This document shows positions 18,861 to 61,988 of a stretch of 64,000 nucleotides of DNA, piece by piece. The position numbers were made by a program, and so were the translations under genes. Below the pieces are notes generated by a model, which saw nothing but the letters and a program-made list of their open reading frames with translations, was not told the DNA's origin and ran no database searches. The stretch is taken from assembly GCA_000146465.1 (NCBI GenBank), contig CP001950.1. One strand, written 5' to 3'. The number at the start of each line of letters is the position of its first letter. Positions within the stretch are counted from its first letter, which is position 1.

Positions 18861-19050
18861 CCGTTTATTCTTAATAGATTTTCAACTTCTTTGATCTCCA
18901 GTGTCTTCTTGCCTTGTTGTACTCCCCCTTGTGCTCCTTCATCATTCTCTTCCATGCAGGAATCTCTCTGTTCCTCTTCAAGGCTCTCATGAGCCTTGTC
19001 TTCACCAAAGCAGTCTTTCTTGATCCCTAGAAATTAACCCGAGTCAAATC
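18861..19050 (-). CDS. RPL39: 60S ribosomal protein eL39, with a 31-nt intron. Exon 1 is the ATG at 19048-19050. The intron is 19017-19047. Exon 2 is 18861-19016.
   Basis: Exon 2 encodes [51 protein letters not shown]. This aligns with eL39 ([50 protein letters not shown]). An in-frame TAG precedes GGATCA, and the ATG lies 31 nt upstream. It is followed by GTAAGG and the intron ends TTAATTTCTAG. Confidence 0.8.
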
Positions 19051-19127
19051 GCCTTACCATTTCGTCGGGGCTCAAATTTTTCTCAAAATAACCTTACCGA
19101 GGAGCTTCCAAGATGAGGAGCCAAAGG

Positions 19128-20258
19128 CTATTTTTTCATCTGCTCTCTCTTTTTGCTATTTTCCCGCATTGCATTGTAAAATGTGCAGAGTTTCTCGATT
19201 GTTAGGCTGTCCTTGAGGCTTTCCAATATACTGCAAACAACTCTTATGTTGTTGGGTGTGTCTTTATCTTCTCTGATCCTATACAATTTCCACCCACCCT
19301 TCCTCAGTACAAACTCATCAAGATCCCAGTAATATCCGTCGTTGTCGTACAGAAACTCTCCTATTTTTCCATCTACTTCCTCGTCTTCACAAAAAAAATG
19401 GCCAAACACAACATCCTTTCCTCTCTTTCCACTGCACACCAGATCGTATACATGGCCAAACTCCTTGGCCTTTGTAATCTTAAAATCTATTGTGTTCAGA
19501 AACGTAGGCTTCCACTTGAGAATTACACCTCTTTTCCCTACCGAGTAAGGCTCATCTGTAGGAGTGAATATTAAGCCGTCATTTCCATGCTTCAGGTCCG
19601 GGATCTTCTTGTACACCTCCCAGAAACCATAGCTCTTCATCATCTGTTTAACATAGAAATGTATACTGATACATCCAGGCTCCTGGCCCTCAGCCCCAAT
19701 TGGAATTCTCTTCGGCTCAAACCCATCCTCGTCCTCTTTTTTTAAGGCTTTGGTCTTTTCGACACTTCCCTTCATTCTATCCACAAACATTTGTGCGTAT
19801 CCAAGCCTTTTATACAAGTTCTTAAGTATCTGGGGAGCGTCTTCATATATCAAGCAATCAAATATGGCGTAAGTGGTGACTGTGCCATCTTCCAGAAAGA
19901 TCTCTCCATCTATCAAGACAGTCGAGGAAAAGGGAAAGTTCATGTCCAATTCGTAGAAGTCGTTTTTTCTATCGTAAAAGTATCCTTTGGATATGCCCAT
20001 CTTTTCTGTAACAAGCAGCAAAGCTCTGATTCCGTCGGACTTCTCGCACACAAGGAAGTCCTTGCTCAACAAAAGATCAATGTTGTCCAGTGTTAGAGAC
20101 ACTGGATGGCATCCTGGAAACCTTTCTCTTTTCTTGGCCCCTGCTATGCAAAGCTTCTGGTATATGCCTATTCTGAGGGCCTCTGCCTCCTCGGACGGAA
20201 CTTTGTTCCCTAGATGTAAGAGCTCCATGACCGATTCAGGACTCCGACAAAACTGCAT
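19128..20258 (-). CDS. CEG1: mRNA capping enzyme, guanylyltransferase subunit (Ceg1-like). The track ORF 'starts' at a GTG at 20276; the first ATG is at 20256-20258.
   Basis: KxDG motif I (LVCEKSDGIRALLL) at the expected distance from the N-terminus, with nucleotidyltransferase and OB-domain order. Confidence 0.75.
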   Translation of the reverse strand: MQFCRSPESVMELLHLGNKVPSEEAEALRIGIYQKLCIAGAKKRERFPGCHPVSLTLDNIDLLLSKDFLVCEKSDGIRALLLVTEKMGISKGYFYDRKNDFYELDMNFPFSSTVLIDGEIFLEDGTVTTYAIFDCLIYEDAPQILKNLYKRLGYAQMFVDRMKGSVEKTKALKKEDEDGFEPKRIPIGAEGQEPGCISIHFYVKQMMKSYGFWEVYKKIPDLKHGNDGLIFTPTDEPYSVGKRGVILKWKPTFLNTIDFKITKAKEFGHVYDLVCSGKRGKDVVFGHFFCEDEEVDGKIGEFLYDNDGYYWDLDEFVLRKGGWKLYRIREDKDTPNNIRVVCSILESLKDSLTIEKLCTFYNAMRENSKKREQMKK

Positions 20259-20285
20259 TTTCCATAGCCCATCCACAATGAAAAA

Positions 20286-20403
20286 GATTACAGCACCCGG
20301 GATTCCCGAGTGGTCTCCCGCCTCAGTACTATCCGGGCTCGCACAGGCTTAACTGCGGAGATCTGACGAGTTCCGGTGCTTTTCTGTGGATATGGCCGTA
20401 ATC
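20286..20403 (-). rRNA. 5S ribosomal RNA (118 nt), with a T5 terminator at 20281-20285
   Basis: The minus-strand sequence GATTACGGCCATATCCACAGAAAAGCACCGGAACTCGTCAGATCTCCGCAGTTAAGCC...GATAGTACTGAGGCGGGAGACCACTCGGGAATCCCGGGTGCTGTAATC matches eukaryotic 5S nearly block for block (UACGGCCAUACC...GUCUGAUCUCGGAAGCUAAGC...UAGUACU...GGGAGACCGCCUGGGAAUACCGGGUGCUGUAGGC). Helix I is a 9-bp closing stem (GAUUACGGC/GCUGUAAUC). A TTTTT run follows. Confidence 0.9.
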
Positions 20404-20493
20404 AGTCATAAATCCTTTCGACTATAAAAACAGTCCCAAAACTCCAAGCCAAAACAGAACCATCTTTTAATTAACTACACCTGCCCTCCAAAC

Positions 20494-22560
20494 TCATTCC
20501 TTCTCCCTAAGCCTTATATACTCCAGCACCTCAGACCCGCTCAAAATCCTCTTTTCGTTCAAAGTCTTTATCCTGGAAAACACTTCGAAATCTCTATCCC
20601 GGATCTTCTTCAAGACTCCTGTCTCCTCGCCATCGTTGTCCTCCTCGTGTGTTTTGACCTCGGCAAAACCTCTGGTCGCTGTAAAGCTAAACAGCTCGTT
20701 TATACATGACTTGTTGAAGAATCTACTTAGCCCAGGGTTACTCAAGACCTTCTTCCCAAGTAGATCTTTAAATATCTGCTTTTGATAAACCTTCTCTTCA
20801 ATTGTATCCTTGCAAATAAACCTATATATTTCCACACCTTTTCTCTGTCCATATCTCCATGCCCTCTCCTTGGCTTGTGTGTCTGTCGATGGATTCCAGT
20901 CCGGGTCATATATAACAATTCGAGACGCTCCAGTAAGATTTAGTCCAAGGCCTCCTACCTTGGTTGTCAAAAGAAACATGAATATGCTATCATCCTTGTT
21001 GAATCTATCCACAAGCGAAGACCGACTCGACGTCGATGTTCTACCATCCATTCTTAAGTATGCGTACTTTTCAACACACTTCTCTATTATATCTAGCATC
21101 CTTATTGTCTGCGAAAACACCAGTACTTTGTTCCCCTCACTCTTCCATTTCTTGAGAAGATCCATCAGAATCTTTATCTTACACGAGGAGCTCACAAGCC
21201 CATACTGGCTCTCTTCTTTCTTCAAAAGCCCCAAGGTCTCCTCGTTATTTTTTTCGCCAGATGCTTCTTCAGAAAGGTCTTCAGAACCGTCTTCCTTTCT
21301 GGGAATAAACAGTCTTGGATGATTGCATACCTTCCGAAGCATGGAAATCCCACTCAGAAGGTTCGCCTTTCCAATCAGAACCTTCATTATGTGTTTTGAC
21401 TCGAGAATCCTGTTGTAGAGTTCAATTTGGATTGGTGTCAACGTGCAGAATATTATTTTGTCTTCCTTGGAAGGAAGCTTATGCGAAATCTGCGACTTTG
21501 TTCTTCTTAGTATATACGGCTCTATCAATGACCGGAGCATCAAACTGTGTCTATAAGCCTTTTCAACCTGGAGATTGCTAGCACTCTTGTACCCTCCTCT
21601 ACGTATTATCTCCTCAAACTCCTCATGGAAAGAGGTGTGCGACCCCAGAAGCCCCGGATTGACAAAGTCAAACATAGACCATAGCTCCCCAAGGTTATTC
21701 TGGATGGGCGTTCCAGAAAGAACAAAGCGACTCCGAGACCTTACTTTCTTCACTGAAAGTGTGATCTGCGCATTTCTGTTCTTTATCTTGTGCCCCTCAT
21801 CTAGGACCAAAGTATCCCATAAAAGGTCCTTTGCCCTTGCCTTGAACTTCTCATACGACATCAAATACACTCCTCTGCAGTCCTCGGCTGGGAATCCAAA
21901 GAAAACTCTTACAAACGGATAAAATCTTTTCCATTCCGCCATCCATTGCGAGACTATTGTGGCTGGACACAGTATTAGTGCCTTTTCGATGGATTTGTTG
22001 TGGAATAGAACTGCTAAAAACACAATCATTTGGATCGTCTTCCCAAGCCCCATATCATCTGCAAGAACTCCACCTTTCTCTCTCTTATACAGCCCCAGCA
22101 TCCATGCCACCCCATCCCGCTGATATTCAAAAAGCGAGTTCCAAAGGAAATCTGGAATCTCAAATCCCTCGCATATACTACTTTCCTTTCTTAAATTCTC
22201 CTGGAACTCATTCTTCATAATTCCCATGTGATTGCAGTACTTCTCAATCGACTTCTCACACCTTTCGTTGAAGACTTCAATGTCCTTGTCATCTTCCATC
22301 CCAGACCATTCGAAGTCGATATTCCTCTTCTCTTCTACCTCCTCTTTTCTACTGTCCTTCTTGCACATAATCGATTTGTCTGCTGCAAGCCTGCTTTTAA
22401 CTTCCTCTATCTCTCTCTCCAAGTCCTTAACCTTCCCCATATCTCCTTTACCTTTGTGTGCCTCTATTTTCTTCTTTAGCTCATCGATCTTGGAAGATGC
22501 CGCCCTCTCCAAGTACTTTTCAACAAACGACTTCTCATAGTCTTCGGCTTTACAGTCCAT
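20494..22560 (-). CDS. SNF2-family DNA-dependent ATPase (ERCC6/Rad26-like or Rad54-like)
   Basis: Helicase motif I LADDMGLGKTIQ, motif II DEGHKIKN, and a C-terminal helicase domain. N-terminal coiled coil. Confidence 0.75.
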   Translation of the reverse strand: MDCKAEDYEKSFVEKYLERAASSKIDELKKKIEAHKGKGDMGKVKDLEREIEEVKSRLAADKSIMCKKDSRKEEVEEKRNIDFEWSGMEDDKDIEVFNERCEKSIEKYCNHMGIMKNEFQENLRKESSICEGFEIPDFLWNSLFEYQRDGVAWMLGLYKREKGGVLADDMGLGKTIQMIVFLAVLFHNKSIEKALILCPATIVSQWMAEWKRFYPFVRVFFGFPAEDCRGVYLMSYEKFKARAKDLLWDTLVLDEGHKIKNRNAQITLSVKKVRSRSRFVLSGTPIQNNLGELWSMFDFVNPGLLGSHTSFHEEFEEIIRRGGYKSASNLQVEKAYRHSLMLRSLIEPYILRRTKSQISHKLPSKEDKIIFCTLTPIQIELYNRILESKHIMKVLIGKANLLSGISMLRKVCNHPRLFIPRKEDGSEDLSEEASGEKNNEETLGLLKKEESQYGLVSSSCKIKILMDLLKKWKSEGNKVLVFSQTIRMLDIIEKCVEKYAYLRMDGRTSTSSRSSLVDRFNKDDSIFMFLLTTKVGGLGLNLTGASRIVIYDPDWNPSTDTQAKERAWRYGQRKGVEIYRFICKDTIEEKVYQKQIFKDLLGKKVLSNPGLSRFFNKSCINELFSFTATRGFAEVKTHEEDNDGEETGVLKKIRDRDFEVFSRIKTLNEKRILSGSEVLEYIRLREKE

Positions 22561-61346: not shown

Positions 61347-61384
61347 ACAGACATCCACATCGAAAGATTGGCTTCTGAATGATG

Positions 61385-61636
61385 TTATGACATGGTATTT
61401 TTGCAACATTCATCCACCCAGGCTGAATACACATCGATGCCTGTGGTAAGCTTGTTTGCTTCGCAGGTGAAGCTTGCGTCACACACAGAGCAATTTGCAA
61501 ATCCTTTCATCAATGGCCTCTTGACTGTACATTGGACAACGTTTTCATGGTTGCAGACCGGACAGTTGAATCTCTTTTCGAGTTTGGACTGCCTTTTTGG
61601 GGCGTTAATCTTTCTCTTTACCCTTTTCCTACTCAT
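61385..61636 (-). CDS. ELF1: Transcription elongation factor Elf1 (zinc ribbon)
   Basis: MSRKRVKRKINAPKRQSKLEKRFNCPVCNHENVVQC...CSVCDASF matches the Elf1 architecture (basic N-terminus plus C4 ribbon FxCPFCNHE). Confidence 0.75.
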   Translation of the reverse strand: MSRKRVKRKINAPKRQSKLEKRFNCPVCNHENVVQCTVKRPLMKGFANCSVCDASFTCEANKLTTGIDVYSAWVDECCKNTMS

Positions 61637-61703
61637 AAGGGGATCTTTGAAGCTAAATTAACATATCTCTTGGATACATGAGGGTGGGATTTCCAACCCA
61701 GAA

Positions 61704-61988
61704 ATGGACATACTGGATGCTGAGGAAAGTGATGTTGATTTAATCGAGCTTCAAGGAGAGGTTGAGAATATGGAGGCCTTTGATGGGAGGCTCAACAAGG
61801 AGCTTGTTCAGCTTGAGTTTGGAACATGTGTTCTTCACGGAAGAAAGATTGACAAAGAGTTTAATATCATTGAGACAGACGTCTGCAACGGAAGGCCTTG
61901 TTTAAAAGTCATAAAGAAGGTTAAATGTGTATATTTATTTGATAAGCCTCCTAGGTATAGAAGCTCAGGCCTAGGGCGTGGAAACTAA
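61704..61988 (+). CDS. Small hypothetical protein (94 aa). Its 3' end overlaps the UBA3 stop by 4 bp on the opposite strand.
   Basis: Acidic N-terminus, then a small beta-rich domain. No motif. Confidence 0.3.
   Translation: MDILDAEESDVDLIELQGEVENMEAFDGRLNKELVQLEFGTCVLHGRKIDKEFNIIETDVCNGRPCLKVIKKVKCVYLFDKPPRYRSSGLGRGN

Follow-up and report, generated by a model that had tools for sequence, protein, structure and literature searches.

Three 5S rRNA genes are listed for Encephalitozoon intestinalis in Table 1 of its genome paper, and also three for E. cuniculi; the 5S rDNAs are counted there among the core genes (Corradi et al. 2010, PMC4355639). In E. cuniculi the three copies are non-tandem, are unlinked to the rDNA units, and carry an internal control region (ICR) together with a TATA box (PMC3369914 Table S4). 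TFIIIB is present in this organism, and TFIIIA was not found (PMC3369914). TATA-dependent Pol III promoters have been proposed for microsporidian ncRNAs (Belkorchia et al. 2017, PMC5499648). With respect to Pol II genes, work cited in PMC3629993 and PMC2803860 describes close or overlapping transcription units as part of microsporidian genome compaction. In E. cuniculi, 5' UTRs mapped by RACE were <7 nt long, and CCC-like and AAATTT-like signals directly preceded the start codons (Peyretaillade 2009), and the 5' UTRs of the intracellular stage are among the shortest known. In the spores of the same species, long 5' UTRs, initiation within upstream genes and read-through of poly(A) signals leading to polycistronic RNAs have been described.

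We have compared these systems with a locus in a 64-kb stretch of E. intestinalis DNA (the window), where a 5S rRNA gene lies on the minus strand between the genes for an SNF2-family ATPase and for the mRNA capping guanylyltransferase, CEG1. Rfam family RF00001 matches 20403..20285 (-) with 97.6 bits (E = 5e-20). The match is full-length, covering model positions 1-120 of 120 without truncation, and the search, suggested beforehand as a check, gave a score well above the gathering score of 38, far from anything expected by chance. The gene at 20285..20403 (-) is 119 nt long, including the first U of the terminator. Right behind it a T5 run, by its sequence a Pol III terminator, can be read directly at 20281..20285 (-), and a T4 or T5 run is found at the same place in 6/6 species. 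The original prediction, made from the sequence alone, had named both the minus-strand 5S rRNA and the T5 run behind it, and both are borne out; that 20403..20285 is a genuine eukaryotic 5S rRNA gene with a Pol III T-run end is fully supported. The spacer of 217 nt between the ORF calls at 20276 and 20494 (ORF-free 20277-20493) had also been given correctly. Calling the gene unannotated, on the other hand, is true for the ORF track only. As three 5S genes have already been published for E. intestinalis, the 5S in the window is not a new gene; the three dispersed copies reported for this species almost certainly include it. The 5S gene beside CEG1 is a real and correctly placed feature, ordinary and previously known. 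Its importance beyond annotation hygiene is small, namely that a seemingly empty 217-bp spacer of the ORF track is a known rRNA gene. It should be mentioned that rRNAs in the T2T assembly were annotated with RNAmmer. In a permissive Rfam scan of the 64-kb window (E <= 0.05) the 5S gene was the sole match, with no further ncRNA, and ARAGORN found no tRNA in the window. A scan of 20100-20600 for sigma-70 promoters and intrinsic terminators, which are bacterial-type signals and irrelevant for a eukaryote, gave 0 matches. A literature search yielded no directly usable cryo-EM source naming the Encephalitozoon 5S.

When the Rfam consensus structure was threaded on the window 5S, 32 of the 34 model pairs were canonical, in agreement with the expected formation of helices I-V. 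The closing stem of 9 bp that had been predicted is present as helix I (9/9 bp, GAUUACGGC / GCUGUAAUC, one G-U). A plain MFE fold recovered helices I-III and refolded the IV/V arm, with z = -3.2; this misfold does not count against the 5S assignment, as both the covariance model and the threading fit. Orthologous RF00001 matches of 92-104 bits were found in E. cuniculi, E. hellem, E. romaleae, Ordospora colligata and O. pajunii. The E. intestinalis 5S is 92-93% identical to those of the other five species, and the corresponding values are 64-77% for the adjoining coding DNA, 48-58% (or 48-66%) for the SNF2-to-5S flank and, for the spacer between the 5S gene and the CEG1 ATG, 60-66% within Encephalitozoon and 22-25% against Ordospora. 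Across the six species 94.1% of the cells are paired, compared to 31-44% in controls with the partners slid. Substitutions in the 5S pairs are mostly G-C<->G-U exchanges, all but one of the substitutions in paired positions keep pairing, and one pair is compensatory (AU<->GC at positions 19/59). The covariation signal, consisting of one pair in which both partners changed and of five other pair types, is not above shuffles; at 95% identity, the six 5S sequences vary too little for this test to be informative, and nothing in them contradicts the structure.

These comparisons also bear on whether the copy could be a decaying or non-functional relic. Some redundancy is conceivable for one of three copies, and nothing specific speaks for decay. 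The score of the copy is on par with those of its orthologues, its identity between genera is retained despite diverged flanks, base pairing survives nearly every change at paired positions, and both the TATA-like element described below and the T-run are retained. The pseudogene reading was rejected on these grounds, and we regard it as extremely improbable. Judged from the aligned sequences, strong purifying selection acts on the copy, which is very probably functional.

A TATA-like element, TTTTTATAG, is located at 20422..20430 (-), spanning -27 to -19 from the 5S +1, and is the probable binding site of TFIIIB/TBP. The element reads TTTTTATAG or TTTTTGTAG in Encephalitozoon and, at the same position, TATAAATA or AATAAATG in Ordospora. 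Upstream TATA elements also serve Pol III genes in fission yeast as well as the 5S genes of Neurospora and plants. By analogy, the element in the window would fit the TFIIIB-driven Pol III initiation discussed for microsporidia. Within the gene there is a box-C-like sequence, GGGAGACC. It is noted that the box-C region equals the Rfam consensus (GGGAGACCAC) and that RNA structure constrains the same stretch. The literature is split on the internal promoter, with the ICR scored as present in the E. cuniculi 5S (PMC3369914) and a second paper stating that the C-box 'could not be characterized'.

The Pol II gene upstream of the 5S gene encodes an SNF2-family ATPase of 688 aa (20494..22560 (-); Pfam SNF2-rel_dom, E = 1.2e-67, and Helicase_C) and ends with a TGA stop codon at 20496-20494 (-). 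An ATTAAA at 20466..20471 (-), which starts 22 nt past the stop and is invariant in four Encephalitozoon species, is the likely polyadenylation signal of SNF2; AUUAAA is the poly(A) signal of about 25% of the genes on E. cuniculi chromosome II. On the other side of the 5S gene, CEG1 (19128..20228 (-); Pfam mRNA_cap_enzyme and mRNA_cap_C) encodes 366 aa and is 100% identical to the 366-aa protein of E. intestinalis ATCC 50506; the locus maps to contig CP075166.1, where the 5S gene falls at about 68133-68251 (complement). A literature search returned no directly usable biochemical paper on E. cuniculi Ceg1. The median intergenic gap in the window is about 56 nt by crude ORF-based gene calls.

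A few observations on the surroundings may be recorded here. Downstream of CEG1, after a gap of 67 nt, a gene for ribosomal protein L39 was seen at ~18871-19060 (-) (L001 5169-5358). Its length of 190 nt, compared to a product of 52 aa, points to a short intron of ~31 nt. L39 was not called in O. pajunii and was called as only 39 aa in L009, a relative whose CEG1 is ~63% identical. The SNF2 orthologue of E. romaleae (L005 1445-3513) appears as two abutting ORFs of 390 and 298 aa, a split that suggests a frameshift or a sequencing error. The window is otherwise very compact, and the crude ORF-based calls leave a few long gaps, of 638 (61347-61984), 358, 346 and 321 nt. No Rfam family or tRNA match was found in these gaps of >300 nt, in which small genes, genes with introns or uncurated ncRNAs may be hidden.

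The distance between the two transcription units depends on where CEG1 starts. The capping-enzyme start had been predicted at 20256-20258, ~25 nt from the terminator. An in-frame ATG does exist at 20258-20256, 22 nt past the T-run, but it is not the start of CEG1; the conserved and annotated start is the ATG at 20228-20226, 52 nt past the T-run. In nine orthologues, out to Nosema granulosis, the N-terminus M-E/D-L lies at the equivalent of 20228-20226. Use of the upstream ATG would add a 10-residue N-terminal extension, MQFCRSPESV, to the E. intestinalis enzyme. This ATG is in frame and open in E. intestinalis only, and a GGG-like motif is present within 15 nt upstream of it. However, E. cuniculi and E. 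hellem have the corresponding ATG in another frame, and that of E. romaleae, which is in frame, runs into a TGA directly ahead of the main ATG. None of the 8 other orthologues has the extension, and the deposited protein of 366 aa begins with MEL. Considering that these three sister species lack a usable start at the 20258 position, while the MEL start is common to the nine orthologues, we rejected an E. intestinalis-specific start at 20258 as quite improbable. First-ATG logic misplaces the E. intestinalis CEG1 start by 10 codons, which is a known microsporidian pitfall; in E. cuniculi, 18% of start codons were re-annotated (Peyretaillade 2009). The GTG-initiated ORF, said to overlap the terminator, starts at 20276, 4 nt short of the T-run at 20281-20285, and does not overlap it. 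The deposited CEG1 of E. romaleae (L005, CP003526.1, 3767-4867) has 288 aa, the first of which is an internal Met. Over the translated stretch, the ORF has no stop between this Met and the conserved MEL start 78 codons upstream, and the annotation looks N-terminally truncated.

With CEG1 starting at 20228, the 52-nt spacer between the 5S terminator and CEG1 is close to the median gap of the window. It contains a conserved block, AAATGnnnTTTTG, at 20248..20260 (-), which includes the ATG at 20258-20256 and is invariant in the four Encephalitozoon species, even though its ATG is unusable as a start in three of the four. By analogy to the known signals, AAATGnnnTTTTG could serve CEG1 as a promoter signal of the AAATTT-like or TATA-like kind, or Pol III as a back-up terminator (T4 at 20252-20249), or both. 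Closer to the gene, a CCC-like motif, TCC, at 20239..20241 (-) lies 11-13 nt upstream of the CEG1 start and is likewise invariant in four Encephalitozoon species, with a perfect CCC at its position in E. hellem. In Ordospora, an unaltered CCC or CCCC stands directly before the ATG, as it does in three further relatives, with CCCC in N. granulosis and in the contigs L009 and L010. E. intestinalis has only the TCC before 20228, but a GGG just upstream of the 20258 ATG, and CEG1 transcription in this species may start upstream of 20258. It is also observed that three ATGs in three frames (20272, 20265 and 20258) fall within 17 nt just past the 5S terminator of E. intestinalis. As read from the sequence, they would form an upstream-ATG trap for transcripts that start in the 5S gene or read through it.

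The order SNF2, 5S, CEG1 is kept in four Encephalitozoon species (E. intestinalis, E. cuniculi, E. hellem and E. romaleae) and in two Ordospora species (O. colligata and O. pajunii). The spacer from the 5S gene to CEG1 measures 52-56 nt in Encephalitozoon and about 210-240 nt in Ordospora (208-234). In three other relatives, SNF2 and CEG1 are separated by 8 nt (N. granulosis, L011 2990-3003), 38 nt (metagenomic contig L010, 1709-1752, in which the upstream gene is assumed to be SNF2) and 71 nt (L009, 2927-3003). An RF00001 match is absent from all three, and the gaps are too small for a 119-nt gene. The gene order around CEG1 is disrupted in Vairimorpha necatrix and Glugoides intestinalis, where no 5S gene was found in the vicinity. 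Since relatives without the 5S gene have SNF2-CEG1 gaps of only 8-71 nt, the adjacency of SNF2 and CEG1 is older than the 5S gene at this place. From this distribution, the simplest and probable course is an insertion of the 5S gene in an ancestor shared by Encephalitozoon and Ordospora; alternatively, a loss of the 5S gene in L009 may have occurred. Following an insertion, the spacer downstream of the 5S gene would have shrunk from about 210-240 nt, as in Ordospora, to the 52-56 nt of Encephalitozoon. The 8-nt gap in N. granulosis also means that the CEG1 promoter of this species must lie inside the SNF2 coding sequence, and junctions of this kind show that it would be unremarkable in this phylum for a Pol II promoter to sit within the gene upstream.

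The original prediction further held that the promoter and leader of CEG1 must lie inside the 5S gene or read through it. This claim of forced overlap rests on the ATG at 20258, which is specific to E. intestinalis, and it is not supported as stated once the true start is taken, for which the spacer is of about the median length for the window and the 5' UTRs known from E. cuniculi are short enough. With 52 nt available and 5' UTRs of <7 nt, there is room past the terminator for the leader and probably for the core signals as well. The 265-bp gap between SNF2 and CEG1 would then be tiled with separate, non-overlapping signals, all on the same strand. The SNF2 stop is followed by the ATTAAA, by the TATA-like element that would recruit TFIIIB, by the 5S gene with its box-C-like GGGAGACC, and by the T5 run. 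Past the T5 run would come the 52-nt spacer with the AAATG..TTTTG block and the CCC-like motif, and then the CEG1 ATG at 20228. Transcription of CEG1 would most likely start a few to ~15 nt upstream of 20228, past the 5S terminator. A start site in this position matches the short 5' UTRs of Encephalitozoon and makes the two units adjacent rather than overlapping, and the Pol II pre-initiation complex would, by its geometry, abut the 5S terminator.

An overlap of the Pol II and Pol III units, with the CEG1 mRNA beginning inside or upstream of the 5S gene, either from an embedded promoter or by read-through from SNF2, has to be weighed against this arrangement. The spore transcripts of E. cuniculi, with long 5' UTRs that often initiate in upstream genes and with polycistronic read-through, provide a precedent for it, as does the CEG1 promoter of N. 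granulosis, which is necessarily inside the upstream gene. Geometry would also bring a pre-initiation complex, if centred ~30-40 nt ahead of a start near 20235, into contact with the 3' end of the 5S gene or its terminator. However, the start codon is not 25 nt from the terminator, as this reading presupposes, the signals of intracellular-stage transcripts hug the ATG, and the spacer, normal for the window, holds conserved promoter-like blocks. In E. intestinalis, a leader from upstream of 20272 would also include all three ATGs noted above, each in a different frame, and the equivalent leader of the sister species would contain out-of-frame or terminated uORFs. These upstream ATGs and uORFs would impair the translation of CEG1, which argues against a productive mRNA of this type. 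Overall, we consider overlapping units unlikely. Given the read-through in E. cuniculi spores, some SNF2-5S-CEG1 read-through RNA is nevertheless plausible, and a minority of transcripts might contain 5S sequence.

With the identity of the 5S gene, its structure, its T-run, the purifying selection acting on it and its position in six species all established, we propose that this locus very probably consists of a functional Pol III 5S gene, a known copy, within the 265-bp SNF2-CEG1 gap, with the CEG1 unit adjacent and non-overlapping. A more speculative proposal, to which we attach little credence, is that, once the 5S gene had entered an SNF2-CEG1 junction that was tiny in the ancestor and had the CEG1 promoter within SNF2, its Pol III complex and nucleosome-free region might have come to act as a platform or insulator that defines CEG1 transcription, with the AAATG..TTTTG block doubling as a fail-safe terminator and a Pol II core element. 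If this were true, expression of the capping enzyme would be coupled to 5S and ribosome synthesis. The tight fit beside CEG1 is normal for an ultra-compact genome. Of mild interest are the conserved way in which Pol III and Pol II signals are packed and the invariant AAATG..TTTTG block, a candidate signal for one or both polymerases. With the signals of two polymerases packed within ~265 bp, the locus would be a convenient test case for interference between Pol III and Pol II.

Compared to the three dispersed 5S genes described in Encephalitozoon, the window 5S shows the same full-length model match, five-helix architecture, T-run and upstream TATA-like element. It has the same lack of linkage to the SSU-LSU rDNA, the same non-tandem arrangement and the same low copy number, and no substantive difference is seen. 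As in the TATA-dependent Pol III promoters proposed for microsporidia, a conserved TATA-like element is present, here ~20-28 nt upstream of +1, and E. cuniculi has TFIIIB subunits with TFIIIA undetected. The element in the window is slightly nearer to +1 than the canonical -30, and its role is assigned from sequence. The locus also resembles the compacted microsporidian transcription units, as these are presented in the two papers that cite the work, in the same-strand spacing of tens of nucleotides and in the CCC-like and AAATTT-like signals close to the start codon. For those units there is published evidence of read-through and of initiation further upstream, and the pair described here is known from sequence. 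In the cases presented in those papers, both neighbours are Pol II genes; in the window, the upstream neighbour of CEG1 is a Pol III gene.
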